Source: Candidatus Latescibacterota bacterium
Lineage (GTDB): Bacteria; Latescibacterota; UBA2968; GCA-2709665
Assembly: GCA_965222075.1 (NCBI GenBank)
Contig: OZ244937.1
Location: forward strand, 992,001-1,056,000
Reading direction: 5' to 3'
Length of the DNA stretch: 64,000 nt
Shown here: one piece after another, positions 8,160-34,900 of the stretch
How positions within the stretch are numbered: the stretch's first letter is position 1
Layout of the letters: every line of letters begins with the position of its first letter
Made by a program: the position numbers and the translations under genes
Notes under the pieces: generated by a model
What the model saw: the letters and a program-made list of their open reading frames with translations, nothing else
Database searches by the model: none
Told to the model about the DNA's origin: nothing

Positions 8160-9023
8160 ATGCATATCGGGATGCGGATTCCGCCTATGGTTCGGGATCT
8201 TGGCTTTGAAGGTGTGGTGGCGTGGGCGAGTGCCAACGGGTTTGGTTCTATCGATGTGCCCCAGGTGGACCGGAAGGTCCGAAAGATCTGCGACAGGGCC
8301 GGGTTGCGCATCGGCACGGTGGACTGGGGCGTTGGGGGGGCGCTGTTGAGCAGAGACGGCCGCGTGCGCCGGAAGGCGGTTGCGGCGATGAAACGGCGGA
8401 TCCAAGCGACGGCCGCGTGCGGCTCGGGGGTGATCTTTGTGTGCCTTGCGCCCGATGACAGTTTGCAGCCCCGGGCCGAGAGTTTTGAGATTTTTAAGCG
8501 GGTCTACCCCGGGATTGTGGACGCGGCGGAAAAGGAGGGCGTCCACTTAGCGATTGAACCCTATCCCGGTCCGGCGCCGGCCTATCCCAACCTGGGCTGC
8601 ACGCCGGAGACTCTCCGGGCCATTTTCGAGGCGATTCCGTCGCCCCACCTGGGGATCTGCTACGACCCCTCTCATTTTATCCGCATCGGGGTGGATTACA
8701 AGCGCCTCCTGGTGGAGTTCGGGGACCGGGTGCGTCACGTGCATGCCAAAGATACCGAGATCTTAGACGACGGGCTTTACGCGTTTGGCTGTCTGGGGCA
8801 GAGTTTTGGCCGCCGTTATCCCCACGGAGAGGGCTGGTGGCGCTATTGTATTCCGGGATGGGGGGCTGCGGACTGGAAGTGGGTGGTGGCCCGCTTAGAG
8901 GAGATTGGGTACGACGGCCCTCTGGCGGTCGAACTGGAGGACGACCGCTATATGGGAAGCACGGAACGGAACCAGGAGGGGCTTCTGGCCGCCAGGGCCT
9001 ACCTGAAGCAGATCATCCGATAG
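8160..9023 (+). CDS. Sugar phosphate isomerase/epimerase (xylose isomerase-like TIM barrel)
   Basis: LAIEP, YDPSH, HVHAKD, YDGPLAVELE. Confidence 0.88.
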   Translation: MHIGMRIPPMVRDLGFEGVVAWASANGFGSIDVPQVDRKVRKICDRAGLRIGTVDWGVGGALLSRDGRVRRKAVAAMKRRIQATAACGSGVIFVCLAPDDSLQPRAESFEIFKRVYPGIVDAAEKEGVHLAIEPYPGPAPAYPNLGCTPETLRAIFEAIPSPHLGICYDPSHFIRIGVDYKRLLVEFGDRVRHVHAKDTEILDDGLYAFGCLGQSFGRRYPHGEGWWRYCIPGWGAADWKWVVARLEEIGYDGPLAVELEDDRYMGSTERNQEGLLAARAYLKQIIR

Positions 9024-9810
9024 CGTTTCTTCCGATGGTCAGGGCTTCCAGAAATGGGAACGCAATACACGCCCGCCGCATCTCGCGTTTGAGCCAGGTC
9101 TTGAAGAGCCGGTTTCTGATCTCCTGCTGCACGGCCCCGGTCAGGGTCGCGGGGTAGATGTGTTGCACAAGGTAGAGCGCGTAGCCTTTTTCGACCTTTA
9201 GCGGCCCTACCAGTTCCCCCGGCGCTGCCGCAAACACCAGCGGGGCGATGCCTTTGGGCAGGTGGCGGCGTCTGAGCCGTCCCAGGTAGCCTCCAGCGGG
9301 TCGGGTGGCTTCATCCTGAGAATGACGCCGCGCCAGATTGTGGAATGCGACACCTTCCTCGGTTATCTGTATCCGGAGTTCCTCTGCAATTCCCTCGTCT
9401 GCGACGTGTATCCAGTAGACTTCCGCCTCGTCGAAGTCCAGGGTATGCTGTGCAAAATAGGGTTCTATTCGACCTTCGGTTGCCTTTTGGGCCAGGGACG
9501 CCTCAAGCAAGCGGCATTCGACCTGTTGGGCCACGTCGTCCAGCGCCAACCCCCGATGCGCCAGCCAGGCCTCTGTTTCTTCCACGCGCTCCAGCCGGTT
9601 CTGGTAGCGCCACGCATCCACTTCCGTCTGCAGGTCCTCCGGGCCCACGCTCAGGCCTTCGCGCAGCGCCAATTGGAGGATGAGACGCTGCCGGGCGCAG
9701 CGGTGGAGAAGGCTCAGGTCGTCAGCAGCCTGCAGCGCACGCAGCAGGTCCGAGAGATGGACGTGCTCATCGTTGACAACGGCGAGCACCGGGTCTGTTC
9801 CCTCCAACAC
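9013..9810 (-). CDS. Parvulin/PpiC-type peptidyl-prolyl isomerase, T1SS-associated
   Basis: FHNLARRHSQD...AGGYLG, VGPL; GTG start with GGAGG RBS next to the HlyD stop. Confidence 0.85.
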   Translation of the reverse strand: MLEGTDPVLAVVNDEHVHLSDLLRALQAADDLSLLHRCARQRLILQLALREGLSVGPEDLQTEVDAWRYQNRLERVEETEAWLAHRGLALDDVAQQVECRLLEASLAQKATEGRIEPYFAQHTLDFDEAEVYWIHVADEGIAEELRIQITEEGVAFHNLARRHSQDEATRPAGGYLGRLRRRHLPKGIAPLVFAAAPGELVGPLKVEKGYALYLVQHIYPATLTGAVQQEIRNRLFKTWLKREMRRACIAFPFLEALTIGRNAIG

Positions 9811-9811
9811 C

Positions 9812-11227
9812 TTATCCCTCCTCGTTTGATGCGAACGCCGCAGATTCACGCAGCTGCCGCAGCGGCTTCAGTAGCAGGTTGAGGATCGAAGTTCTGTCCG
9901 TTATGATCTCGGCGGTGCCCTTCAGGCCGTACATCAGCGGCTTTTCCTCTCCGCGCACCCGCACGGTTATCTCTTCCGGTTGCACGATGCACCGATAGAC
10001 CGGGCCGAGGGTCGGATCGACGGTTGCATCCGGCGATATCTGCGTTAGTCTCCCCAGCTTGATGCCATAGTCTTCAAAGGGGAAGGCTTCGTACTTCAGC
10101 TTGACGGCCTGCCCCGGCTTGATCATTCCCACGTCCTTGTTCAGGACCATCGCTTCGGCCACCGTGGGGGCGGAGGCCGGGGCCAGGGTGGCCAGGGCCT
10201 GTCCTTTGTCGGCCACCTGGCCCACGGTGTTCACGAGCACCCGGGTCACGATGCCGGCTTCCGGTGCCAGGATGAGGTCCGAGTCGGCCTCCAGGGCCCG
10301 GTCCACCGCCTGCTGCGCCCGTTCGTAGCGCAGCTTTGCCTCTTCGTAGGCGTGCACGGCCCGGACGGACTCCCGGTCGCGGTCGATCTGCGCCTGCAGG
10401 ATTTGTCGCTTCAGGTCCTGCACGGTTGTTTCCAGGCGATGGACCTCCGCCATCCGGGCAGGGAGAGCGGCCAGCGCCCCAAAGTAGCGCACCCGGGCCT
10501 CGTCTAAGGCCTTGTGGCTGATGAGGCGCTTCTTGTAGAGCTGCCGGCTCTCCATATACAGATGTTTGAGGTGTTCCAGTTCTGCGGATCGAAACCGGAT
10601 CTCCGCCTTCAGGTCCGCCTCAGGAGGGTTTGCATCCGGGGTGTGACCTTTCAGGTCCTCCTCTCTGAAGCTCTCTCGATAGGCCTGCAAGGCGTCCTGG
10701 TGGGTCTGCATCAGCGCTTGCATGAGGTCCAGCCTGGCTTTGAGCGCGGCAACGGTCTCCTGCGTGAGCCGCCGCTTTTGGGGCAGGGCTTCCCGAAGGT
10801 CGTAGTCCGCTTTCTGAAACTGCACTTTGGCCTGTTCCAGTTCCCGCAACTCCATCCAGGTTTCACGGGACCGGAGTTTGAAGAGAATTTGCCCTTTGCT
10901 CACCCTGTCCCCCTCCTTCACCCCGATGCCCTCAATCTCTCCACCCCGGGGCGCCTGGACAGTATTCACCCGGCCCCGGGGCATGAGGCGAAACGGCGCT
11001 GTGGCCACCACATCCACTTTCCCAAACCCCGCCCAGAGTAGCCCGGCCAGGACAAAGGCCAGCACAATATAGAGCAGCGTCCGGCTAAAGGCAGGGTGAA
11101 GAGACCCGAAGAACTCAGACACTTCCACCGCGTGTTCTACATTCCCCGAAACAGGGTGAACCCCGGCATCTGGAACACCGGGGGTTTTCTCCACCAATGC
11201 GGATGCTGTTAATACGGGTTCGGCCAT
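9812..11227 (-). CDS. HlyD-family type I secretion membrane fusion protein
   Basis: Single TM, VKEGDRVSKGQIL, coiled coil, AFPFEDYG, ISPDA. Confidence 0.92.
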   Translation of the reverse strand: MAEPVLTASALVEKTPGVPDAGVHPVSGNVEHAVEVSEFFGSLHPAFSRTLLYIVLAFVLAGLLWAGFGKVDVVATAPFRLMPRGRVNTVQAPRGGEIEGIGVKEGDRVSKGQILFKLRSRETWMELRELEQAKVQFQKADYDLREALPQKRRLTQETVAALKARLDLMQALMQTHQDALQAYRESFREEDLKGHTPDANPPEADLKAEIRFRSAELEHLKHLYMESRQLYKKRLISHKALDEARVRYFGALAALPARMAEVHRLETTVQDLKRQILQAQIDRDRESVRAVHAYEEAKLRYERAQQAVDRALEADSDLILAPEAGIVTRVLVNTVGQVADKGQALATLAPASAPTVAEAMVLNKDVGMIKPGQAVKLKYEAFPFEDYGIKLGRLTQISPDATVDPTLGPVYRCIVQPEEITVRVRGEEKPLMYGLKGTAEIITDRTSILNLLLKPLRQLRESAAFASNEEG

Positions 11228-11263: not shown

Positions 11264-14200
11264 TTATGCCGCGTCCAGCTGCTGACCTGTCAGGTAGTAA
11301 TAAAGCCCTTGCTTCGCCACCAGGCCCTCATGATCCCCTGTCTCTACGATGTGTCCTTTGTCCAGCACCACGATCAGGTCCGCATTCCGTACGGTGCTCA
11401 ACCGGTGGGCGATGACGAACGCCGTGCGGTCTTTTAAGATGTCCTCCAGGTTCTCCTGGATGGCCTGCTCCGATTCCGTATCCAGGGCGTTGGTCGCTTC
11501 GTCGAAGATCAGGATCCGGGGATCGGTGTAGAGCGCCCGGGCGATGGCGACCCGTTGCCGCTGCCCGCCGGAGAGTCCCACACCCTGTTCTCCGACCCTG
11601 GTTTCGTAGCCCATGGGCAGGTCGGAGACAAAGCCGTGGGCGTTGGTCAGCCTGGCGGCCTCCACCACCCGGTCCATGTCGACCTCTTCCGCGCCCAACG
11701 CGATGTTTTCCGCGATGGACCCGCTGAAGAGGAACGGCTCTTGCAGGACCATCCCGACCTGGCGCCGCAGCCATGCCGGGTTAAAGTCGCGCAGGTCGAT
11801 CCCGTCGAGCGTCACCCGCCCTTCGGTGGGATCAAAAAGCCGGGGGATGAGTTTCACCAGCGTGGTCTTCCCTGCGCTGCTACGGCCTACGACGGCCACC
11901 TTCTGGCCGGGCTGAACGGTCAGGTCGATGTCGTTGAGGACATAGGGTTCCTCTGCACCGGCTCCGTAGCGAAAGAAGACCTTTTCAAACGCGATCCGAC
12001 CTTCCATCCGCTGGAGGGTTACCGCATAATTCCCATGCCGGGACGCCTCCATAGGGCTATCGTAGATGTCGTTGAGCCGGTCCAGCGCAATGCGCGCCTC
12101 CTGGATCTGTGGCCAGAGACCGATCAGGCCCATAATCGGTCCTGTTACGTTTCCGACGATCGCATTGAAGGCCATCAATTGTCCTACCGACAGTTCCCCG
12201 TCAATCACCAGGGTCGCTCCGTACCAGAGAATAAATGTGCTGCTGAAGAGGTTCAGCAGTCTGCCGATAGAGCCGAACAGCATCCCGATTTTCATTCGGT
12301 GAAATCCGATTTGAATCTCTTTGGTGTAGCGATCCTCCCATTTCCACCTCGTGCTCCGCTCTACAGCCGATGCCTTGACAGCGTCAACGCCATGCAGGGA
12401 GTCGATCAGCACAGACGACTGTTCAGCTTGCGCCAGGAAGGCGCGCTGGCCGAGCGACTTGAGGACCGGCGTGTAGATCAACGTCAGGATCACGGTAAGC
12501 GGCATAAATGCCAGCACAAAAAGGGTCAACTGTGCATGATAATAGAGCATCAGCCCCAGGTAGACGAAGAGCATGGTCACGTCGAGGACGACCGAGACCG
12601 TGGCGCCGGTCAACAGCGCTTGAATCGTGGCGTTTTCCCCGAATCGTGTTGTGAGATCACCTGTGCGACGCAGTGCGAAGAAACGCATCGATAGGCCCAG
12701 CAGGTGCCGGTAAAATCGGGAGAGCATGGTGATACTCAACCGGGCGCTGACGTAGGCGATCAGGTAGGTCCGCAGTGCGGAGGTGCCCATCTGGAAGAGG
12801 GCGATGACGATCATTCCGATCAGCATCAGGTTGAGCAGGTGCCGGTCCTGGTGGACCAGGACCTGGTCTACGATGGTCTGCGTAAAGATCGGCGAGGCGA
12901 GCCCGAACAGGCTCAGGACCAGGGACGCCAGGAGGATTTCGCAGAGGATGCCGGCGTAGGGCCGTACAAGGGGGAAGAACCTGCGGAAGGAGGGCAGGGA
13001 GGATTCGTTTTCGGCCACCCGGTCCGTGTACTCCAGAAGAAGCGCCATATGGGCCCAGCCAGCCTCGAACGCCTTTCTGGAGAGCTTCCGGATGCCGATT
13101 TCAGGGTCGGCGATCATCGCATACTTTGCGGTGATCTGAAAAAGGACGATAAAGTGGTTGCCCTCCCAGTGGATCACGGCGGGCAGGTCTGTGCGCAGCA
13201 GCTGCTCGTAGCCCGTCCGCACACCCCGCGTGACAAACCCCAGGCTCTCCGCAGCTTCGGCCAGCCCGGCTAAAGACGCCCCGTGGCGTGAGACGTTGGC
13301 CATGTCCCGCAGCCGGTTCAACCCGATGGGCATCCCGTAATACTTGCAGATCATCCCCAGACAGGCCGCCCCACAGTCGGTCTGGTCATGCTGCTTGAGA
13401 AATGGAAACCGGCGGATTTTTCGGGCCTTCCCGTTTTGGGACGAGGCCTCCGGCGTTACCGTATCCTTCGTTCGCTGCGTTTGGGGAGCAGTCGGTCCAT
13501 TCACCGGAATCGGCGCGGGTTCCGCAGATTCTTTCTGTCTGTGCTCCGAGACCGCCCCTTCAAGCGCCCGGCGCAAGGGGGGGATTCGACCCACAAAGCG
13601 GTCAAAGTCCACCTTCGACAGCGAATAGACTACAACATCGGTCACTGCGGTGATGGTGGCCGGCTGGGGTGTGTTCTCCAGCAGCGCCTGCACGCCAAAG
13701 AAATCCCCCTGCTTCAGTTCATATGCCGTTCGCTCCCGTCCGCAACCGTCCAGGCTTATGGCCCTCATGTGTCCACCGCCAATCAGGTAGAACCGTTCTC
13801 CTGCGTCTCCCTGGCGGGCCACACACGTTTCGGAGGATAGGGCCTCCCGTTTCAAGCTCCGGAACAGGTCCTGCATCGCTTCGCCGGATACCTGTCCGTT
13901 TCCCGCTTTGAGGAACCGCGTGAAGTCCCGGTATGCGATGTGAACGATCTGGTCTTCAAGATACGCTTTCAAGTCCGGGTTGGAGGAGACAACCTTCAAG
14001 AAATCGGCTCTGGAGACCCGCAGCACTCCTGAGGGCTCAACCGCGCGTACCGTGGCGCGACGTCCCAGGCCGGTCAATAGTGCGCCCTCTCCGAAGTGGT
14101 CGCCAGGGTAGAGGTAGCCCACCGTCTGGGGGCGTTCCTCATCATCCTTCCGGAGGACTCGCAAGCGGCCGGACCGGACGATGTAGAAGGCGTCGCCCGG

Positions 14201-14290
14201 ATCGCCTTCCTGGAAGATGGTGGCGCCCAGATTGAGGCGCAGAGAGTTTTCTTGGGAAGCGAATTTATCCGGTAGGATTGGATGGTTCAT
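11264..14290 (-). CDS. Peptidase-containing ABC transporter: 2x cNMP-binding + C39 peptidase + TM + ATPase
   Basis: Two GDxFG cNMP domains; QHDQTDCGAACL, HWEGNHF, IADP; GRSSAGKT, LSGGQRQR. Confidence 0.93.
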   Translation of the reverse strand: MNHPILPDKFASQENSLRLNLGATIFQEGDPGDAFYIVRSGRLRVLRKDDEERPQTVGYLYPGDHFGEGALLTGLGRRATVRAVEPSGVLRVSRADFLKVVSSNPDLKAYLEDQIVHIAYRDFTRFLKAGNGQVSGEAMQDLFRSLKREALSSETCVARQGDAGERFYLIGGGHMRAISLDGCGRERTAYELKQGDFFGVQALLENTPQPATITAVTDVVVYSLSKVDFDRFVGRIPPLRRALEGAVSEHRQKESAEPAPIPVNGPTAPQTQRTKDTVTPEASSQNGKARKIRRFPFLKQHDQTDCGAACLGMICKYYGMPIGLNRLRDMANVSRHGASLAGLAEAAESLGFVTRGVRTGYEQLLRTDLPAVIHWEGNHFIVLFQITAKYAMIADPEIGIRKLSRKAFEAGWAHMALLLEYTDRVAENESSLPSFRRFFPLVRPYAGILCEILLASLVLSLFGLASPIFTQTIVDQVLVHQDRHLLNLMLIGMIVIALFQMGTSALRTYLIAYVSARLSITMLSRFYRHLLGLSMRFFALRRTGDLTTRFGENATIQALLTGATVSVVLDVTMLFVYLGLMLYYHAQLTLFVLAFMPLTVILTLIYTPVLKSLGQRAFLAQAEQSSVLIDSLHGVDAVKASAVERSTRWKWEDRYTKEIQIGFHRMKIGMLFGSIGRLLNLFSSTFILWYGATLVIDGELSVGQLMAFNAIVGNVTGPIMGLIGLWPQIQEARIALDRLNDIYDSPMEASRHGNYAVTLQRMEGRIAFEKVFFRYGAGAEEPYVLNDIDLTVQPGQKVAVVGRSSAGKTTLVKLIPRLFDPTEGRVTLDGIDLRDFNPAWLRRQVGMVLQEPFLFSGSIAENIALGAEEVDMDRVVEAARLTNAHGFVSDLPMGYETRVGEQGVGLSGGQRQRVAIARALYTDPRILIFDEATNALDTESEQAIQENLEDILKDRTAFVIAHRLSTVRNADLIVVLDKGHIVETGDHEGLVAKQGLYYYLTGQQLDAA

Positions 14291-14336
14291 CCGGGTTTCT
14301 TAGCCTCAGCGTCATCTTTCTTCAGATTCTGTTACC

Positions 14337-14480
14337 GTGGAAACCTGCTGCTTTGGCATGAAACGAGAGCGATTACGGGCGATGTTGGAAGCTGCCGTGG
14401 AGCTACAGGATGCTTATTACACCTTCTGTTTGCTCCACGACAGCCTCAAGCAACAGATTCATCCCCTCTGGGCCAACAAA
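14337..14480 (+). pseudogene. Probable IS1-like transposase C-terminal relic
   Basis: ETCCFGMK...LEAAVELQDAYYTFCLLHDSL resembles RxTxCFSK...YNFCxxHxSL. Confidence 0.45.
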
Positions 14481-14545
14481 GGGCAACGGGTCGCCGAAAG
14501 AGTGGTCTCCACATACCCCGATGGCAGAAGGGATAACGGATCACG

Positions 14546-14573
14546 CCTGCCTGCCGAGTCCGGCGCAAGCAGG
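14546..14573. repeat. Palindromic element copy (28 bp)
   Basis: cctgcctgccgagtccggcgcaagcagg flanked by G|C. Confidence 0.7.
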
Positions 14574-14586
14574 CAAAACGCTCTCC

Positions 14587-14847
14587 CTAACTGCGATATC
14601 CGGAGTAAACTTCATACATCTTTTGCCTCTTGTAAAATTCATCGACAAAAGTGTCTCCTGGTGGGGGGGTATATATAACATAGCTAGACACCAGGTATTT
14701 AGAGGGAATCTCCTTACCATTTCCTCCTTCTACGATCGCCATTTCATGCATGCTTAAGCTTTCTTCGCGTAGGGGTAGAGGTACACACTGTACGAAGAAT
14801 TGTCCTGGATCTGTTGTAATCCGGTTATTACGTACTTTGGCTACCAT
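14587..14847 (-). CDS. Putative double-glycine-leader precursor peptide (86 aa; 42-aa leader + 44-aa core)
   Basis: TAAGGAGG RBS; EESLSMHEMAIVEGG fits LSxxELxxIxGG; between glycosyltransferases and C39 exporter. Confidence 0.72.
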   Translation of the reverse strand: MVAKVRNNRITTDPGQFFVQCVPLPLREESLSMHEMAIVEGGNGKEIPSKYLVSSYVIYTPPPGDTFVDEFYKRQKMYEVYSGYRS

Positions 14848-15072
14848 CGTTGTTACCTCCTTATTGAGACTCAGAGAATTCTGAGACATCCGGTTGTGAG
14901 CGGATACCTGTATCCTGACATTCCTCATCGCGAAGTTCGGATGTCAAGAGCGGTATTCAGAGTGGGGTAGTTATGCGTTACCTCTCTGTGTCAGACCATA
15001 AGCGACCTCCTCTGGAATCGGGTGATCGGTTCCGGGCAATATGCATGGACGGTGGGATAGAGCCGTCCCATC

Positions 15073-16470
15073 TCACGGGGACATCAGCATATCGCCCATC
15101 TGCCGGATCTTTCGGAGCGCCTGATGGCACGTCTCCCGGTCGCCGGCGATACCGAGCAGCGCGGCCTCCACCTCGTTCGGATGTAGCGCCTGGCTCAGGT
15201 AGAGGCCCAGGCCTTCCAAGAACGGAAGGTCCTGATGCAGGAAGGGGACCCTGGGGAGCGGGCCCTGCTGGCTGCCAAGATAGTTGTATGCCTTGCTATG
15301 TGCATGTCCTTTCAAGTTATAGCCCTGGACAAAGTGGACGGTGAGGGGTACAGGGCAGGTACCCCGCTCACGCTTCTGAAGGAGATCTTCGAAAAGCTCC
15401 ACGTGCTGTTTTGCAATCCGGTCCCACGAAAATCCTTCTGCTCGTTCCCTTGCCTGCCGGCCTGATTTTTCCCGTTCGGTTTTGCTGTCGATCAGGCTTC
15501 GTATTGTATCTGAAACTGCCTCTGGGGGGATGTAGCCGGACACGCTGAGCGGTTCGTCCTCAAATCGCGTGACCTCGACCATCCAGCCGCAGTTGGAAAG
15601 GAGTTCGGGCGCGCCGGCAAACCGGGTGGCCACAATTGGAAGGCCGCATGCCATTCCTTCCAGCACAACCGAAGGGCAGGATTCGTAGGAGTAGACCGAC
15701 AGGAAGCAGAGCACATCCAGCAGGTTGTAGTAAAGCGGCATCCGGTTGTAGGGCTGAGGTCCGAGAAAGATGACATTTGGTGGATGGGTAACGGGAACAA
15801 ACTGCTGGCCGACGACGGCGAACAGGACATCCGGGTTCAGATCGGCTATGCGAAGAAAGGGATACGCTCCCTTGCCCGGTTCGAATCGAGAACAAAATCC
15901 AACGACAGGCATCTCCAAAAATCGCTGATCACTGGTGGCCTCGGCGACCTCTTTGCGGGCAGCGAGCTTGTCGGTGGGCTTGAAGACCTCTGTGTCCACG
16001 CCGTTCGTGATGGGCCTCAGGTAAGACGGGTCGAAGGCGTAGGCCGCCAGTTCGCGGGCACACCAGGTCGATTTGGGTGAGAGCGCGTCGTAAGGCCGAA
16101 GCAGGGAATAGCAGTTCAAGACCTGGTTCAGGAACTCCCGGTTCTGCCCAAAACAGCAGGACAGACGGATGACGATTGGAGCGGGGCAGACATGGCGGAA
16201 GAAGGCCAGCTCATTAACGTTTGGCTCAAACATCAGCACCGCATCGAATTCCTGTCGCTCAAACCATTGAAGCGAAGCGTCGATGGTTTCGAACGCTTGC
16301 CGAACGCCATAGATGTTGTCCTGGTACTCCTCTGGCTCCTCCGATAGCAGGAAGACCTCGCAGTACTTAGACAGGGCTTGTACGTGATTGAACCCCGAAA
16401 TCGAAGCGCCACTCCCGGATTCGTATACGGCCGCTTCGGAAAGGTATGGATAAGGGATGAAAATCTTCAC
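15073..16470 (-). CDS. Family 4 glycosyltransferase with ~90-aa C-terminal extension
   Basis: NGVD, ESCPSVVLEGMACGLP (Ex7E); GTG start with AAGGAG RBS. Confidence 0.88.
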   Translation of the reverse strand: MKIFIPYPYLSEAAVYESGSGASISGFNHVQALSKYCEVFLLSEEPEEYQDNIYGVRQAFETIDASLQWFERQEFDAVLMFEPNVNELAFFRHVCPAPIVIRLSCCFGQNREFLNQVLNCYSLLRPYDALSPKSTWCARELAAYAFDPSYLRPITNGVDTEVFKPTDKLAARKEVAEATSDQRFLEMPVVGFCSRFEPGKGAYPFLRIADLNPDVLFAVVGQQFVPVTHPPNVIFLGPQPYNRMPLYYNLLDVLCFLSVYSYESCPSVVLEGMACGLPIVATRFAGAPELLSNCGWMVEVTRFEDEPLSVSGYIPPEAVSDTIRSLIDSKTEREKSGRQARERAEGFSWDRIAKQHVELFEDLLQKRERGTCPVPLTVHFVQGYNLKGHAHSKAYNYLGSQQGPLPRVPFLHQDLPFLEGLGLYLSQALHPNEVEAALLGIAGDRETCHQALRKIRQMGDMLMSP

Positions 16471-19481: not shown

Positions 19482-20477
19482 TCAATCCCCACCCCGGTAC
19501 CGATCTGCCCGAAATCCGTGCTCGGCCATTCGTACCTGGAAGTACTGCCGTCCGATACCGCTCTCCCGGGCGGCCTGAGAGACGTTGCCCCCGGTGCGCA
19601 GCAGGGCACGGTGAAGGTATTCCCGGGTGAAGCGGTCCAGGCTGAGGCGCCGGGCTTCCTTATAGGAAAGTTCATAGAGATCTGCCTCGGACGTGCCTGA
19701 GGCCTGGATGTGAGGCGGCAGGTCGCCGGGGTAGACCTGTTCTCCCTCGGCCAGGAGGAGCGCCCGGGAGATGACATGGGTCAGTTCTCGGACGTTGCCC
19801 GGCCAGTCGTAGCCCTCCAGCAGCATCCGGACCTCCGGAGAGAGGGGGCGTATTCTCAGTCCATTCTCCTGGGATTTCGCCACAAAATGCTCGATCAGGA
19901 GGGGTATATCGCTTCGACGATCCCGAAGAGGGGGCAGATGGAGGTGGATGACATCGAGGCGGTAAAAGAGATCCTCACGGAATCGGCCCTCCAGAACCTG
20001 TTGTTTCAGGTCCCGGTGGGTGGCTGTGACTAAGCGCACGTCGGCCCGGTGGATTCGGCTGTCGCCTACCGGACGGAACTCGCCTTCCTGGAGGAGCCGG
20101 AGCAGGTGGGGCTGCAGGTCCCCGGGCAGGTCGCCCACTTCGTCTAAGAAGAGGGTGCCGCCTCTGGCCTCTTTCACCAGTCCGCACCGGTTTTCGAAGG
20201 CGCCGGTAAAAGATCCCCGGAGATGGCCGAAGAGTTCGCTTCGGGCTACGTCCCGGGACAGAACGCCGCAGTCCACGACCACAAAGGGTCCATCGGAGCG
20301 GGGACTTTGGGCGTGAATGGCGCGTGCGAGTAATTCCTTTCCGGTGCCGGTTTCCCCGGTGATCAGCACCGGCAGGTGGCAGCGGGCGGCACGGTGGGCC
20401 AGGTTCTGGACTTCCAGAACGGTGGGATGGCGACCGACAGTGGGGCTGTTGCGGGTGGTGCATGCAAAAGGGGACAT
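19482..20477 (-). CDS. Sigma54-dependent enhancer-binding protein without N-terminal sensor
   Basis: GETGTGKE, ELFGH-GSFTGA, FLDE, WPGNVREL, Fis-like HTH; GGAGG RBS. Confidence 0.9.
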   Translation of the reverse strand: MSPFACTTRNSPTVGRHPTVLEVQNLAHRAARCHLPVLITGETGTGKELLARAIHAQSPRSDGPFVVVDCGVLSRDVARSELFGHLRGSFTGAFENRCGLVKEARGGTLFLDEVGDLPGDLQPHLLRLLQEGEFRPVGDSRIHRADVRLVTATHRDLKQQVLEGRFREDLFYRLDVIHLHLPPLRDRRSDIPLLIEHFVAKSQENGLRIRPLSPEVRMLLEGYDWPGNVRELTHVISRALLLAEGEQVYPGDLPPHIQASGTSEADLYELSYKEARRLSLDRFTREYLHRALLRTGGNVSQAARESGIGRQYFQVRMAEHGFRADRYRGGD

Positions 20478-20509
20478 TGCGCTCCCTCCCAAAAGTGTAA
20501 GAATCTCGC

Positions 20510-20761
20510 TTGTAATCAGGTCCAGTCCTTGGGCCTCTAACAGCGTACGGATGAACGGTGACCCACGCACCAGCCGCTCCCCCGGCCAGCGCAGCAGGAA
20601 CTCGATGCCTGCGCGGTTGATGAACGGGACGCCTTTCAGCTCCGGTACCAGGCGCTACGCCTCCCGGAGCGAGTGGGTGAATGCCTGCTCCAGTCCTCTT
20701 CAGACATCCAGTTTAGCAGAATCTTCTCCGAAGTCTGCGATATGACTGTGAGCCGTACCGT
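20510..20761 (-). pseudogene. Decayed STAS-like small protein
   Basis: ACG at start position, frameshift and internal TAG; remnant LVPELKGVPFINRAGIEFLL...SPFIRTLL. Confidence 0.55.
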
Positions 20762-21006
20762 CTGATTGCTCTCCGGATTACACACTATCTGCAAACCAAA
20801 TCCTGTGCCAAAAAAATAGCCGCCCAAAGCGTGTCGCTTCAAGTGGCTGTTTATAATAGGGGTTGTGGGATGACTGTACAAGGTTAGCCGGACAGGATGC
20901 TAACTGGTGCAGGGACAGTATCTGGTCCCACCAATTGTGCTAATTTCTTTTATTCTGTTTATAAACATATAGATTGTAAGAACAAACATGGGTCCCATAT
21001 ATGGTC

Positions 21007-22359
21007 TCAGGGCGCTATATGTGGGACCTGCGGCCGCTGGATGTCCAGCTTCTTCATGCGGTGGCTCAATGTAGACGGATGCATGCCCAGCAAGGCAGCC
21101 GCTCCGTGCGGCCCCTTGATGACCCATCCGGCCTGTTCCACGACCTTCCGTATGTGCTGTTTTTCGAGTTCTTTCAGGGTCAGGATCTCCTCAGAGGATT
21201 CACCATCCGGCCGACCGGATTCCAGGGCAATATCCTTAGGCTGGATCGCCTGCCTCCGGCACATGATCACGGCACGCTGTACCGCATGCTCCAGTTCCCG
21301 GATGTTGCCCGGCCAGTCGTAGGTCCTCAGCACGGCCAGCGCCTCCGGAGTCAGCTGGGGTACTGCTTTGTTTAGATAGGACGCCATCCGCTCCACAAAA
21401 CAGGCGGCCAGAAGCGGGATGTCCTCCCGGCGCTCGCGCAGGGGCGGCAGTCTCACGGGAAACACTTGCAGGCGAAAGTAGAGATCCTCCCGGAACTGCC
21501 CGTTGGCCACCATCTCCTGCAAATTCCGGTTGGTAGCTGCAATCACCCGCATATCGGCCACCAGCGTCTCGGTGCCGCCCACCCGCTCGAAGGCGCGTTC
21601 CTCCAAGAGGCGCAGCAGCTTCACCTGCGCTTCCAGGGCCAGGTCCCCGATTTCATCTAAGAAGAGCGTGCCGCCCGCCGCCAGTTCCACCTTGCCCAGC
21701 TTGCGGGAGACCGCTCCGGTGAAGGCCCCCCGCTCGTGCCCGAACAGTTCGCTTTCGACCAGGCCTTCGGGGAGGGCGCCGCAGTTGACCTGGATGAAGG
21801 GGCGATCTCTGCGCGGGCTCAGCCGGTGCACGGCCCGGGTAGCCACCCCTTTGCCGGTACCGGTCTCGCCTGAGATCAATACGGTCAGGTCGGTTTTGGC
21901 CACCTCTGCAAGCTGCGCCTGGACCTCGCGGAGGGCCTGGCTATCCCCCACGAACTCGCCTTTGGTCCCACTCTGGCTCAGCACCTCGGCCAAGACCTGG
22001 ATGTGAGGGTCGGGCACCACGTTCAGTGTGACAGAAGCTGGCTCGGAGTAATTCAGGTCCTGGTCCACGGCCTGGACTTCGAACGTGAAGGTTTCCCTCG
22101 GCAGGTCCTGGTATTCCACACGTCGAGCGTTTGTGGTCTGCCAGTCTTCATCGTAGCCTTTCAGCCGATACCGGTAGACCAGCCCTTCCGGACGCGTTTT
22201 GAAGCTGATGCCGTGAAATTCAAAAACAATGAGTCCCACACTGGTGGAGATGGTCAGATCATCTTCCCTCTCATAGGCACAAAATAGCGCGAAGTTTTGA
22301 CTACCCGACAGGTCTCGAAAGCGGTATAATCCTGCTTCGAGCAGGACGAACGTTTCCAT
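21007..22359 (-). CDS. Sigma54 enhancer-binding protein with Y_Y_Y domain, probably N-terminally truncated/chimeric
   Basis: YRYRLKGYDEDW...FEVQAVD; GETGTGKG, GAFTGA, WPGNIREL, HTH. Confidence 0.88.
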   Translation of the reverse strand: METFVLLEAGLYRFRDLSGSQNFALFCAYEREDDLTISTSVGLIVFEFHGISFKTRPEGLVYRYRLKGYDEDWQTTNARRVEYQDLPRETFTFEVQAVDQDLNYSEPASVTLNVVPDPHIQVLAEVLSQSGTKGEFVGDSQALREVQAQLAEVAKTDLTVLISGETGTGKGVATRAVHRLSPRRDRPFIQVNCGALPEGLVESELFGHERGAFTGAVSRKLGKVELAAGGTLFLDEIGDLALEAQVKLLRLLEERAFERVGGTETLVADMRVIAATNRNLQEMVANGQFREDLYFRLQVFPVRLPPLRERREDIPLLAACFVERMASYLNKAVPQLTPEALAVLRTYDWPGNIRELEHAVQRAVIMCRRQAIQPKDIALESGRPDGESSEEILTLKELEKQHIRKVVEQAGWVIKGPHGAAALLGMHPSTLSHRMKKLDIQRPQVPHIAP

Positions 22360-22424
22360 GATTATCCTCCTCTTTGATGGTTGCCAATTTGAAGGATAAT
22401 CTAAGGTGTCTTGCTCATTTCTTA

Positions 22425-22505
22425 CCTGCCTGCCGAGCAAGGCACCTGTCTGCCGCCTGCCTCGCCTGCTTCAGCAGACAGGGACAGGCAGGCGGCGCAG
22501 GCAGG
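22425..22505. repeat. Stack of nested palindromic elements
   Basis: Left ends at 22425, 22445, 22456, 22465; right ends finishing at 22482, 22492, 22505. Confidence 0.75.
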
Positions 22506-22672: not shown

Positions 22673-23998
22673 TCATAAGCCATTGAAGTTCAGCAGTTTG
22701 AGCTGAAGGTCGTGGGTAATTTCGAAGCTGAGATAGATGGCACAGCGATCATAAATGGCCACAGCAGCAAACTCGAAGAGCGGTTTACGCAGGGATTTGA
22801 GTTGCTGAAAAAGCGTGGCCTTCTCCTGCAGGACGGACAGCTTGTAATCCACCATCAGATTGAAGCTCCACAACGTGAGTAACACGAAGCAGGTATTCTG
22901 TTGAAAATCTTTTCGTGGAAGCTTCTCGATAGCGAAGTCGTTCTTCAATTCTTCGATCAATTTTTCGACCAGATTCCTGTGGTCGTAAAACTGCACGGTT
23001 TCGGTTTTGGATAATTGGGTGTCATTGGTAATTACGGCCCATGGGGCACAGCCTTTTTGTCGGACCACGATACACCGTATTGACTTTGTAGTCAAGTAGG
23101 TGTTGAGAAAGATTGGTTCAACTTCGGTGATCCACACGCCTGGTTTGAGCCGTTGGCGGCCTGGGGTTCTGGAGTTGACCGCGTTGATCAGATCACGATG
23201 TTCTTTCTGATAATTCTTTAGGACCGTGAAGAACTTGATCTTTTTGCGTTGAAGAAATTTGAAGTTGTCGCCCGACCAAAAGCCGCGGTCCATGCCCAAC
23301 CGCTTCAGCCGGAATCCCAGGTGATGAACTGCCAGTACAGCTGGGATCAGTTCTTGTGCATCGGATTGATCAACGGTGGTGAAACGCACATATAATAGGG
23401 TTTTCGTGGCAATATCGATCAGTAAAAACAGTTTAAATCCGTAGTAGGATTTGCCACGCATCTTGATCCAGGCGGCTTTCTCAAAACTTGAGTTCGGGCT
23501 TTTTCCGATGAGGGTGCTGTCAAAATAGGCTTCCAGATTTTTGGGCAACAAGCCACGCCGGCGCAGGCTTGCCACATGACGGGTAAAGCCTGCTTCAATC
23601 AGTTCGGGCCTCAATGTTTCGAACAGATCGTAGAGAATATCGACACTGGCCCCACGCTGTTGACCGTAGCTTAACGCGAAGACGCGCTGAATAAACTTCT
23701 GCACCAACAGGCCGCGCAATTGGTTGATTGAAGCGCAGTTCAGTTGTGGGCGGCAGATTAAAATCAGCATCAGTGAGACCGCGCGATACCCTTTCTCCTT
23801 CGTGGTCATGCCAACCAAATACACCTGTCTGCAGTGCGGGGCACCGCACAGGCAGGTCGGCAGTTTCAACTGGTAGCGCAGGTAACGCACAAAAGGCAAG
23901 ATGCCGGCAAAGGCAGCGGCGCCTTGATTGGATGGGGTGTCCCCCGGATGAATGAGAGAATCATAGGACTTGCTTGAGCCGGCACGTTTTTGCGACAT
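22673..23998 (-). CDS. DDE transposase (IS1380/IS4-like)
   Basis: YFDST, MDRGF, YDHRNLVEKLIEELK. Confidence 0.88.
   Translation of the reverse strand: MSQKRAGSSKSYDSLIHPGDTPSNQGAAAFAGILPFVRYLRYQLKLPTCLCGAPHCRQVYLVGMTTKEKGYRAVSLMLILICRPQLNCASINQLRGLLVQKFIQRVFALSYGQQRGASVDILYDLFETLRPELIEAGFTRHVASLRRRGLLPKNLEAYFDSTLIGKSPNSSFEKAAWIKMRGKSYYGFKLFLLIDIATKTLLYVRFTTVDQSDAQELIPAVLAVHHLGFRLKRLGMDRGFWSGDNFKFLQRKKIKFFTVLKNYQKEHRDLINAVNSRTPGRQRLKPGVWITEVEPIFLNTYLTTKSIRCIVVRQKGCAPWAVITNDTQLSKTETVQFYDHRNLVEKLIEELKNDFAIEKLPRKDFQQNTCFVLLTLWSFNLMVDYKLSVLQEKATLFQQLKSLRKPLFEFAAVAIYDRCAIYLSFEITHDLQLKLLNFNGL
23824..23856. repeat. 33-bp palindromic element in frame within the transposase
   Basis: cctgtctgcagtgcggggcaccgcacaggcagg; encodes about CLCGAPHCRQV. 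Confidence 0.8.
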
Positions 23999-31931: not shown

Positions 31932-34900
31932 CTACGTGGCGCCATAGCACTCTCCAAATATTATAAAATCGGCAAAATTGATGGTTCCATCCCCATTATA
32001 ATCCATCCGTGCATCAAAATTTGCATCCGATGAACTGGATCCAAAAGCCGCGCCAAATAACGCAAAATCAGTTTGATTGACCTCACCATCACCATTAAAA
32101 TCGCATGACACAGGTGCCGTCGGTGTCGCCGAGGCACTCGCTGAGGCCGTGCCATTCCCCCCAGCGTTCACCGCCCGCACCTGGAAGGTGTATCTGGTTC
32201 CATTGTTCAGACTCCTCACCGTATAACTCGTCGTGCCAGAGCCACTGCCTGAAATATCCGTCCAATCCGGCGACCAACTGCTGCCACTGTTGGTGCTCTG
32301 ACGATACTGATACTTTGTGATGCTCGCATTGTTCGGGTTACTCCAACTCAACACAACCTGACCATTCCCTGCAGTCGCCGTGAAGTTCGTGGGCGCGGGC
32401 GGCGGTGTGACCGGTGCCGTCGGTGTCGCTGAGGCACTTGATGAGGCCGTGCCATTCCCCCCAGCGTTCACCGCCCGCACCTGGAAGGTGTATCTGGTCC
32501 CATTGTTCAAGCTCCCCACCGTATAACTCGTCGTGCCAGAGCCACTGCCTGAAATATCCGTCCAATTCGGCGACCAACTGCTGCTGCTACTGGTGCTCCG
32601 ACGATACTGATACTTTGTGATGCTCGCATTGTTCGGATTGCTCCAACGCAACACAACCTGACCATTCCCTGCAGTCGCCGTGAAGTTCGTGGGCGCGGGC
32701 GGCGGTGTGACCGTGACCGGTGCCGTCGGTGTCGCTGAGGCACTTGATGAGGCCGTGCCATTCCCCCCAGCGTTCACCGCCCGCACCTGGAAGGTGTATC
32801 TGGTCCCATTGTTCAGACTCCTCACCGTATAGCTCGTCGTGCCAGAGCCACTGCCTGAAATATCCGTCCAATCCGGCGACCAACTGCTGCCACTGTTGGT
32901 GCTCCGACGATACTGATACTTCGTGATGGTCGCATTGTTCGGGTTGCTCCAACGCAGCACAACCTGACGATTCCCCGCAGACGCCCTGAAGTTCCCAGGT
33001 GCCGACGGCCGCGTAACAGGCGCCGTCGGTGTCGCTGAGGCACTTGATGAGGCCGTGCCATTCCCCCCGGCATTCACCGCATGCACCTGGAACGTGTATG
33101 CGGTCCCATTGTTCAGACTCCTCACCGTATAACTCGTCGTGCTGGCACCACTGCCTGAAATATCCGTCCAATTTGGTGACCAACTGCTGCCACTGTTGGT
33201 GCTCCGACGATACTGATACTTCGTGATGGTCGCATTGTTCGGGTTGCTCCAACTCAACACAACCTGACGATTCCCCGCAGACGCCCTGAAGTTCGTGGGC
33301 GCGGCAGGCCGCGTGACAGGTGGGGGCGTGACCGTGACCGGCGCCGTCGGTGTCGCTGAAGCACTCGCTGAGGCCGTGCCATTACCCCCGGAATTCACCG
33401 CATGCACCTGGAACGTGTATGCGGTCCCATTGTTCAGACTCCTCACCGTATAACTCGTCGTGCCAGAGCCGCTGCCTGAAATATCCGTCCAATCTGGCGA
33501 CCAACTGCTGCCACTGTTGGTGCTCCGACGATACTGATACTTCGTGATGGTCGCATTGTTCGGGTTGCTCCAACTCAACACAACCTGATGATTCCCCGCA
33601 GACGCCCTGAAGTTCGTGGGCGCGGCAGGCCGCGTGACAGGTGGGGGCGTGACCGTGACCGGCGCCGTCGGTGTCGCTGAAGCACTCGCTGAGGCCGTGC
33701 CATTACCCCCGGAATTCACCGCATGCACCTGGAACGTGTATGCGGTCCCATTGTTCAGACTCCTCACCGTATAACTCGTCGTGCCAGAGCCGCTGCCTGA
33801 AATATCCGTCCAATCTGGCGACCAACTGCTGCCACTGTTGGTGCTCCGACGATACTGATACTTCGTGATGGTCGCATTGTTCGGGTTGCTCCAACGCAGC
33901 ACAACCTGACGATTCCCCGCAGTCGCCGTGAAGTTCGTAGGCGCAGACGGCGGTGTGGCCGTAACCGATGCCGTGACCGTGACCGAAATCGGCTGCGTGG
34001 CCGTCAAGGCCCCGTCGCTGGCCGTCACCGTAATGGTCGCGCTGCCTGCGGCCACCGGCGTCATCGTTACCGTGCTTCCCGATACGCTCACCGTCGCGAC
34101 GGATGCCGCCGACGTCGTGGCCGAATAGGTCAGACTATTCCCATCGGAGTCGCTGAACTTGCTCGACACGTCAACCGATGCGGCGGCTCCACCCACCGTC
34201 AGCGATTGCGCGCTAATGGACCCCACCGCCTTCGGCGGGTCATTCACCGCAGTCACCGTCACCCTCACCGTTGCCGTTGCCGTGCCACCATACCCATCCG
34301 ACACGAGATAGACGAAGCTGTCCGTCCCATTGAAATTGGTATTGGGCGTGTACGTGATGCTCCTCCCGGTCGAAGTTACGGTACCGTTCGACGGAATGGA
34401 CGTAGCGATCACGGTCAGCGGGTCACGTTCCGGATCGCTGTCGTTGTCCAGCACGCTGATGGTCGCGGCCACGTCTTCATCGGTCGTCGCGTCGTCATTC
34501 CCCGCCGTCGGCTCCTGGTTGACACCGGAAGGCGTCACTGCCGATGCAACGGACAGCGCGATGGCATCAACGCCGATCCATGCATTTGTGCTATCTGAAT
34601 TTCCATCCATACCAACAATTCTTGCCTCGCTGCCATCATATGCAGAAACATCCCACGTATATTTGGTGAAATCGTCCGTTCCCGGCGCAAAAGTCCGTCG
34701 CTTTGTTGTCCAACTGCCATTTTCTAATACCTGCAATGCGACTGTATTCTGGTTGCGGGATACGGAGCTGTCGTATCCGCACACCTTGAGATTGATATAC
34801 GGCCTATAGATGACAAAGGAATTGGAGGTCAACGTTCCCGTGCCGGTCTGTGGATCATAACTGCCCGCGCTATGTGTGCCTACCTCCCCCACTTCCGATG

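Follow-up and report, generated by a model that had tools for sequence, protein, structure and literature searches.

Glycocins such as sublancin (SunA/SunS/SunT) and glycocin F combine a precursor carrying a double-glycine (GG) leader, an adjacent cytoplasmic glycosyltransferase (GT) and export by a C39 ATP-binding cassette (ABC) transporter, and their cores fold as a helix-loop-helix with nested disulfides. To our knowledge, the glycosylated ribosomal peptides described so far are few, and GT2 or other enzymes are used to make them. Here we describe a gene cassette from Candidatus Latescibacterota, a phylum for which we know of no cultured members, in a 64,000-nucleotide stretch of contig OZ244937.1 (assembly GCA_965222075.1), hereafter the window. 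On the minus strand, two activator genes, a sigma-54-type site, two GT genes (GT4b, then GT4a), a gene for an 86-aa peptide (positions 14587 to 14847), a spacer, a peptidase-containing ABC transporter (PCAT), an HlyD-family adaptor and a peptidyl-prolyl isomerase (PPIase) follow one another. We read the peptide as a secreted precursor that would be cleaved and exported by the C39 transporter and probably O-glycosylated by GT4a and GT4b, a joint reading from sequence comparison to which we assign a probability of about 0.6. In relatives, leader genes directly follow a dedicated GT, an arrangement that suggests a type of sugar-decorated peptide not described before.

The cassette resembles those of glycocins in its double-glycine precursor, a GT encoded alongside, a C39 ABC transporter and what appear to be Ser/Cys-type acceptor sites. 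It lacks two features that define glycocins, a SunS-type GT2 and a disulfide-stapled core. The GTs here are GT4 and GT28/GT1-like enzymes of the GT-B type, in contrast to SunS-type GT2 enzymes (GT-A), and because the core contains no Cys it cannot form a disulfide-stapled helix-loop-helix. Unlike in glycocins, the leader belongs to another, longer family, export is of the Gram-negative tripartite type with HlyD, the transporter has cyclic-nucleotide (cNMP)-binding domains, and a PPIase stands in place of thiol-disulfide oxidoreductases. GtfA/GtfB, the O-GlcNAc transferase pair of serine-rich-repeat adhesins, may be a second parallel, being a GT4-family GT-B pair that glycosylates Ser/Thr in the cytoplasm before export; its substrates differ in being large adhesins that leave by accessory Sec, and the leading Foldseek matches of GT4a did not include GtfA. 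Leader families shared by many cores are known from the Nif11 and NHLP groups, from which the present leader differs in being unrelated by sequence, in occurring in one order only among the genomes searched and in its coupling to a dedicated GT4.

Glycocins have been treated recently in two papers (PMC12457901; bioRxiv 10.1101/2025.05.19.655019). Double-glycine bacteriocin clusters of cyanobacteria, as far as the accessible text of PMC3140520 describes them, share with Nif11/NHLP systems and with the present family a single leader family with many hypervariable cores, genomes that hold several precursors and C39 ABC transporters with HlyD. The closest described exporter is HetC of Nostoc PCC 7120, a cNMP-PCAT that is needed for cell differentiation and binds ppGpp in vitro; its catalytic residues are required for function, and the available part of the report gives no known substrate gene nearby (PMC10986499). 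Our exporter has the same order of cNMP-binding, C39 peptidase and ABC exporter parts and conserves the catalytic residues. It has two cNMP-binding stretches as opposed to the single domain described for HetC in that text, and whereas the substrate there is unknown, a substrate family is adjacent and identifiable here. Cacaoidin, a Tyr-O-glycosylated peptide that is made on the ribosome and modified after translation (RiPP), has a cluster that includes the GT4 enzyme Cao24 and thus offers precedent both for O-glycosylation of a RiPP at Tyr and for RiPP clusters that contain a GT4 enzyme; from the part of PMC8068269 available, it differs in being a lanthidin of actinobacterial origin that bears many further modifications and has a different export route.

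The precursor gene and its leader family

Related genomes, their genera and families, and loci fetched from them carry our own labels (G001, g1, f1, L009 and the like); G001 belongs to the same genus as the window's genome. The precursor gene is laid out as follows.

14587..14847, minus strand: precursor peptide gene, 86 aa plus stop (from translation)
14847-14845 and 14589-14587, minus strand: ATG start and stop codon of the precursor open reading frame (ORF) (from sequence)
14722-14847, minus strand: leader, residues 1-42 (from translation)
14590-14721, minus strand: core, residues 43-86 (from translation)
14863-14856, minus strand: Shine-Dalgarno-like TAAGGAGG, 8 nt before the ATG, near-conserved in G001 and G004

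The precursor ORF is a real, conserved gene. Between the window and its G001 ortholog the leader has accumulated 7 synonymous and 2 non-synonymous changes (ratio of non-synonymous to synonymous rates, dN/dS, 0.07), the core 4 synonymous and 21 non-synonymous (dN/dS 1.6), and dN/dS of the adjoining ABC gene is 0.27. The G001 ortholog also carries, right after the GG, an in-frame insert of 39 low-complexity residues (KGG and TTG/KTG repeats; L009:7446-7562); Ser/Gly/Thr-rich stretches just past the GG were seen in peptides of G027, G039 and G023 as well. A profile built from 21 related leaders matched the ORF at E = 1.4e-20 within its own genome. The initial annotation of this DNA, made from the letters alone, had staked its proposal on the ORF being conserved, which the leader comparison with G001 bears out, and every detail that it gave of the gene holds on re-reading the sequence: the ribosome-binding site (RBS), a leader that ends in LSMHEMAIVEGG with G41 and G42, and a 44-residue core, NGKEIPSKYLVSSYVIYTPPPGDTFVDEFYKRQKMYEVYSGYRS, that contains 7 Tyr, 5 Ser, 2 Thr and a PPP run but lacks Cys. 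Its remark on GC content is likewise confirmed, as 14590-14849 at 0.435 was the lowest of all 260-nt windows between 9 and 20 kb, the others spanning 0.46-0.70.

A single study provided four metatranscriptomic libraries, under the label sponge metagenome, from which assembled contigs matched the region at 99-100% identity (14468-14655, 14494-14759, 14770-14998, 14950-15172 and 14996-15198), spanning 14587-14759 and 14770-14847 within the precursor gene. They are consistent with transcription of the precursor region over 14468-15198, as assembled contigs that show neither strand, ends nor level and may stem from DNA carry-over; the gaps at 13800-14467 and 15199-15400, within the 13800-15400 covered, say nothing on transcription there. 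Two other readings of the local frames were set aside. A 113-aa protein from an ATG at 14928 is improbable, as that frame is disrupted upstream of the RBS by a 10-nt indel in the G001 ortholog, and the plus-strand ORFs 14282-14536 and 14337-14678 in the spacer had no Pfam family, one start being deleted in G001.

The leader is the shared part of an otherwise diverse family. In a homology search of 61 related genomes, 39 gave a match, nearly always across residues 3-45 only. The 21 leaders align almost without gaps, with T11, C21, L24, G41 and G42 invariant and R9 and E28 nearly so, and the stretch formed by their first 26 residues is lineage-specific (N-R-x-T-T-x-P-x-Q-x-F-x-x-C-x-x-L-x-x-R-E). 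Double-glycine leaders typically have hydrophobic residues at -4, -7 and -12, an acidic residue at -8 and Gly-Gly at -2/-1. The last 15 residues here contain L31 (-12), E35 (-8), M36 (-7), V39 (-4) and both glycines, with Glu rather than a hydrophobic residue at -15; GG is present in 21/21 leaders, and the adjacent gene encodes a C39-ABC protein with its catalytic residues. The proposal that this is a double-glycine precursor for a C39 exporter is thus well supported at the sequence level, through the leader pattern, the Cys, His and Asp of the C39 domain and the occurrence of both genes in the same genera. Leader-family ORFs and homologous exporters, a pairing that the initial annotation had suggested looking for, both occur in genera g1, g2, g4 and g6.

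Across the phylum the leader profile matched 41/168 genomes, comprising 16/21 of family f1 and 23/31 of family f2, with one weak match among 115 elsewhere, so that the leader family is confined to one order of Candidatus Latescibacterota and two families among the genomes searched. Copies number 1-7 per genome, with a single one in the window's genome. Against 1.84 billion representative proteins the profile gave 89 matches at E <= 1e-3, about 75 of them proteins of 54-191 aa that match at their N terminus and have unrelated cores, the rest long repeat proteins. The 86-aa protein occurs in a collection of 5.8 billion proteins as itself alone, no other homolog being returned, and neither this collection nor the related-genome search yielded a core homolog outside the genus; the best score in an ESM Atlas search was 0.81, under any useful level and to unnamed clusters throughout.

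Pfam and NCBIfam scans placed the 86-aa protein in no family (NCBIfam at E up to 0.1), and scans of the 21 leaders at E up to 10 gave one chance row per library. The curated leader models, which we take to be the bacteriocin-type signal (TIGR01847), Nif11 (TIGR03798), NHLP (TIGR03793) and GG_sam_targ_CFB (TIGR04149), matched neither the precursor nor its relatives. No description of the leader family or the cassette was found in the open-access literature searched, in which the family is therefore undescribed; the part of PMC12993501 available to us gives generic antiSMASH classes only and nothing on either. A distant leader subfamily (M-x-R-R-I-V/A-S-x-P ... L-P-I-x-T-x-D-L ... SGG) without the otherwise invariant Cys was noted at L041, L042 and L043 (G029, G026 and G017).

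Glycosyltransferases and a candidate acceptor residue

Two GT genes lie upstream of the precursor, separated from it by a conserved region.

14848..15072, minus strand: conserved 5' region from the GT4a stop to the peptide start, with blocks including CTTGACAT shared with G001 and G004
15073..16470, minus strand: GT4a, GT4 glycosyltransferase, 465 aa, GTG start after AAGGAG, C-terminal extension of about 100 aa
16520..19078, minus strand: GT4b, 852 aa, with a GT4 domain in its N-half and a second GT-B-type module, GT28/GT1-like, in its C-half

Coupling of GT4a to the leader is close to complete. GT4a had 36 matches in 24/61 genomes (g1, g6 in 21/21, and g11), with up to four copies per genome, and 35/36 copies are followed on the same strand by a leader-family gene that starts 51-669 nt downstream, usually about 55-170 nt. 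The lone remaining copy (G023, L039) had no leader at E <= 0.1 within 10 kb. Searched against the 5.8-billion-protein collection, GT4a falls into a closed clade of 46 clusters at >=42% identity, after which come generic GT4 enzymes at <=30%. A metagenome scan with the C-terminal domain of GT4a returned five loci, of which just two were close relatives: in L045 a leader lies 63 nt downstream of GT4a, and in L044 the end of GT4a is altered, another ORF comes next and no leader was found.

GT4a was modelled by AF2 with a GT-B fold (pLDDT 88.1), its nearest Foldseek neighbours being MshA, GlgM and BshA (E ~1e-18) and PimB'. The E-x7-E motif, which marks GT4 retaining glycosyltransferases, is intact as ESCPSVVLE and invariant in 6/6 sequences. 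The conserved C-terminal extension of about 100 residues is predicted to contain three strands followed by three helices, in models of which that of the isolated domain is weak (pLDDT 63.6). Its topology is like that of a RiPP recognition element; VIA-align aligned the three helices only (Z <= 7.5), Foldseek gave no row at E <= 1e-3, and there was no PqqD Pfam match. For the N-half of GT4b the best NCBIfam score was to a PEP-CTERM/XrtA-associated GT model (314 bits, below its cut-off of 442), and the C-half had weak matches to MurG, OleD and YjiC. The C-half occurs in 25/61 genomes, the GT4a distribution plus one g10 genome, directly upstream of GT4a and either fused or free-standing. No glycan flippase, polymerase, polysaccharide export or sugar-nucleotide genes were found in the cassette by Pfam, and the sole exporter is the PCAT. 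Within family f1, g1 has the GT genes, whereas none were seen in g2 and g4; rearrangement may have added or removed the GT block.

The presence or absence of the GTs is mirrored in the cores. We compared 113 distinct leader-bearing peptides from all fetched loci, 70 with cores from GT-bearing genomes and 43 from GT-less ones. Of the former, 52/70 contain the motif [DEN]-x-[VAILGFC]-S-[EDQK], and of the latter 4/43, a contrast that rests on few independent events because one group is in essence genus g6 and the other g2, so that it amounts to a handful of parallel substitutions and not 113 points. In a BLAST-linked core family, ...DYISEEFGIDLP in GT-bearing genomes corresponds to ...LVAEIFGVTLP in GT-less ones, with Ser in 5/5 versus Ala in 6/6. 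A second family has ...WYGDRVSEG as against ...WYGDRIMDG or ...DRAKD (Ser in 4/4 versus 0/5), and Cys-tailed cores have ...E(T/F)(I/V)SE... as against ...V(L/V)AE... (3/3 versus 0/6). Ala is the replacement in two of these three homologous families. Two further pairs, DTVSEWW with IAEAIVDYF and WDWGDFAS with WDWGDALW, behave alike by eye. These substitutions point to the Ser of a hydrophobic-Ser-acidic motif as the likely acceptor in the family, and Tyr is not favoured.

One core family, at L014:10311-10574, L014:12174-12413 and L023:2263-2514, has a hydrophobic helix and an acidic stretch together with a tail in which as many as seven Cys in a row precede a final DD (CCCCCCCDD); its GT-less relatives end CCSCSCKK-like.

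The initial annotation had taken the hydroxyl residues of the window's core for glycosylation acceptors. The link of GT4a to the leader and the way the Ser motif tracks the GTs lend substance to the general idea, but Tyr finds no favour as the acceptor and the window's own core is without the motif. The block KYLVSSYVI is identical in the window and G001 cores, and naming it as the glycosylation site is a guess from the alignment; the Thr-rich insert of G001 would supply many more hydroxyls.

The export module, regulation and relatives of the cassette

Downstream of the precursor are the spacer and the genes of a putative export module.

14291..14586, minus strand: structured spacer of 296 nt, peptide stop to ABC start, conserved in G001
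11264..14290, minus strand: exporter, PCAT, 1008 aa (Pfam)
9812..11227, minus strand: HlyD-family periplasmic adaptor, 471 aa (TIGR01843, 219.5 bits, cut-off 208.65; Pfam HlyD_3)
9013..9849, minus strand: PpiC/parvulin-type PPIase, 278 aa (Pfam Rotamase)

The exporter gene, 296 nt downstream of the peptide gene, encodes in order two cNMP_binding stretches, Peptidase_C39 (295-421, E = 5.4e-37), ABC_membrane and ABC_tran by Pfam, with all NCBIfam matches under their curated cut-offs. Aligned to PCAT1 (4ry2), the C39 domain retains the Cys, His and Asp (TDCGAAC, NHF and ADP). The cNMP-C39 part was found in 39/61 relatives, in genera g1, g2, g4 and g6 only, all of which carry the leader too; the leader occurs additionally in g7 and g11, for which the genomes searched were 82% and 89% complete.

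The PPIase gene overlaps the end of the HlyD gene by 38 nt (9812-9849) in a different frame. It follows HlyD in 6/6 evaluable loci, and in G027 the two form a single fused frame of 573 aa with the PPIase at the HlyD C terminus (L013:16333-18054). Because it stands beside cores that mostly have no PPP and is fused to HlyD in G027, the PPIase appears to go with export whatever the core, and the earlier idea that the PPP motif explains its linkage is not supported.

Upstream of GT4b are the candidate regulatory elements.

19189-19174, minus strand: TGGCACAGGGTTTGCG, a site resembling a sigma-54 promoter, which lies about 95 nt upstream of the ATG of GT4b
19482..20570, minus strand: sigma-54-dependent activator, AAA+ and HTH_8 (Pfam), with a 96% identical ortholog at the same position in G001
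21007..22440, minus strand: second sigma-54-dependent activator, with a Y_Y_Y domain (Pfam), with an ortholog in G001

The exact TGGCAC-N5-TTGC is present upstream of cassette genes in G001, G030, G039, G034, G022 and G002, with one further site downstream of the cassette in G004, giving seven distinct sites in the fetched loci. Cassettes of g6 have a response regulator with an AraC-type domain instead of the sigma-54 activators. Upstream of the activator gene with its start at 20570, a second sigma-54-type site, TGGCACAGGATTTGG, occupies 20795-20810. A sigma-70 scan gave no site upstream of the precursor ORF on the minus strand, and the RNA-library contigs from the conserved region upstream of the peptide extend to 15198. 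The spacer is predicted to fold strongly (14291-14590: -125.6 kcal/mol, z = -4.55, 0/200 shuffles as low) and contains a terminator-like hairpin at 14496-14482, and the ends of two RNA-library contigs fall at 14468 and 14494, a weak hint that partial termination may keep the peptide mRNA above that of the transporter. An Rfam scan of 14200-15150 returned one chance microRNA row far below the gathering score.

The order of the window's cassette recurs in G001, G030, G027, G022 and G039, and G004 and G002 have the peptide, ABC, HlyD and PPIase genes without a GT. In g6 and g2, peptide genes are followed by Rce1-like/CPBP membrane proteins of the usual bacteriocin-immunity type. In some relatives, further peptidases are encoded after the peptides and ahead of the ABC gene: an M16 pair in G027 (L013:10473-13264), an S41 peptidase in G022 (L014:15207-16274) and a DUF3267 zincin in G002 (L015:6834-7649). 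An IS110-family transposase lies between the peptide and ABC genes in G004 (L010:7654-9285), and in the window an IS4-type DDE transposase (22673-23998) lies just past the cassette activators. Farther away, 32113-33974 holds six tandem copies of a 321-nt unit with 91% matches, probably a repeated protein domain, and 38698-39497 (72/144/216-nt units) and 42746-43161 (126-nt units), with 72-78% matches, resemble repeat-protein genes.

Weighing the readings and what they would mean

We postulate that the leader is bound by the adjacent transporter, whose C39 domain would cut after G42, and that the 44-residue Tyr-rich core would then leave the cell through the ABC/HlyD machinery. Ahead of export the core would probably be O-glycosylated in the cytoplasm by GT4b and GT4a, following glycocin logic with GT-B enzymes. 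The PPIase may assist export generally, as a foldase or chaperone that is not specific to PPP, the sigma-54 promoter upstream of GT4b appears to drive the cassette, and the structured spacer may hold the peptide mRNA in excess of the transporter mRNA. For the family, the reading that the sequence comparisons support best is glycosylation by the upstream GTs, at even to somewhat better than even odds, and it is somewhat less secure for the window's core.

Several observations weigh against this account. Leader peptides and exporter occur without GT4a and GT4b in g2 (0/15 genomes) and in g4, and because of this the GTs are dispensable for the leader system. The closest solved relatives of GT4a (MshA, BshA, GlgM and PimB') act on small molecules or lipids. 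Neither the window core nor that of G001 has the Ser motif, V-D-E-F-Y and A-E-T-Y-Y standing at a comparable place. The PPIase has no obvious signal peptide in its sequence, and the window cassette has no Rce1-like/CPBP gene, the two PF02517 matches of the genome being far away. To these are added the two-genus basis of the motif contrast and the limits of the RNA-library contigs given above.

Rather than an antimicrobial, the mature peptide might be a signal or a matrix/adhesive peptide, its release gated by a nucleotide second messenger through the cNMP domains. The absence of an immunity-type CPBP gene from the cassette would fit such a role, as would the single leader-family gene in the window's genome and a polar, strand-prone core that is rich in Tyr and lacks any amphipathic or membrane-spanning segment, and the accessible text on HetC provides a precedent in a cNMP-PCAT that serves differentiation and binds ppGpp in vitro (PMC10986499). 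However, the relatives have tandem arrays of hypervariable cores, each followed by an Rce1-like/CPBP gene in a bacteriocin-plus-immunity layout, the core dN/dS of 1.6 fits diversifying antagonism, and the cassette has no evident gene for a receptor or sensor kinase. We consider a signal or matrix role unlikely, if still a serious contender; by analogy with the relatives, a part in competition or an antimicrobial activity is suggested for the window's core.

A second alternative keeps the secreted peptide but leaves it unmodified, in the manner of a class II bacteriocin or microcin, with the GTs making a co-regulated glycolipid or surface glycan and adjacency reflecting co-regulation or inheritance as a block. 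Use of the leader and exporter by g2 and g4 without GTs speaks for it, as do the sub-threshold match of the GT4b N-half to the PEP-CTERM/XrtA-associated model (314 bits versus 442), the non-peptide acceptors of the structural neighbours of GT4a and the missing Ser motif in the window's core. Yet 35/36 GT4a copies, up to four in a genome, each stand directly before a leader gene, and the subfamily was not found apart from the leader system in the 61 genomes or the 5.8-billion-protein collection. The cassette also offers no flippase, polymerase or sugar-nucleotide genes for a glycan, and in three core families Ser is replaced exactly where the GTs are missing. Export of an unmodified peptide is in our view improbable. 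That the ORF is a chance, untranslated frame in a low-GC intergenic spacer, as its shortness, the lack of a Pfam or NCBIfam match and the absence of core homologs outside the genus might suggest, can be dismissed as very improbable in view of the 7 synonymous against 2 non-synonymous leader changes, the frame-preserving insert of the ortholog, the leader profile match (E = 1.4e-20), the roughly 75 family members among 1.84 billion representatives, the strong RBS and the RNA-library contigs over the ORF.

Returning to a glycosylated and exported precursor, a more specific claim can be put forward tentatively, at a little short of even odds: that the family is a new class of glycosylated ribosomal peptides, in which a GT4 with a C-terminal peptide-docking domain and a fused GT4/GT1-like enzyme would O-glycosylate a defined Ser (hydrophobic-Ser-acidic; in the window's core perhaps LVSSY), and a second-messenger-gated C39 exporter would serve one leader with interchangeable cores, up to seven per genome. 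If true, a GT-B (GT4) route with a double-glycine leader would provide a new enzyme-leader pair for genome mining and peptide engineering, and the comparison of GT-bearing with GT-less genomes names a concrete candidate acceptor residue. It would also give the cNMP-domain peptidase-containing exporters their first substrate family. For Candidatus Latescibacterota, the cassette points to secreted-peptide chemistry in a candidate phylum, and its sequence is present in RNA libraries labelled sponge metagenome.

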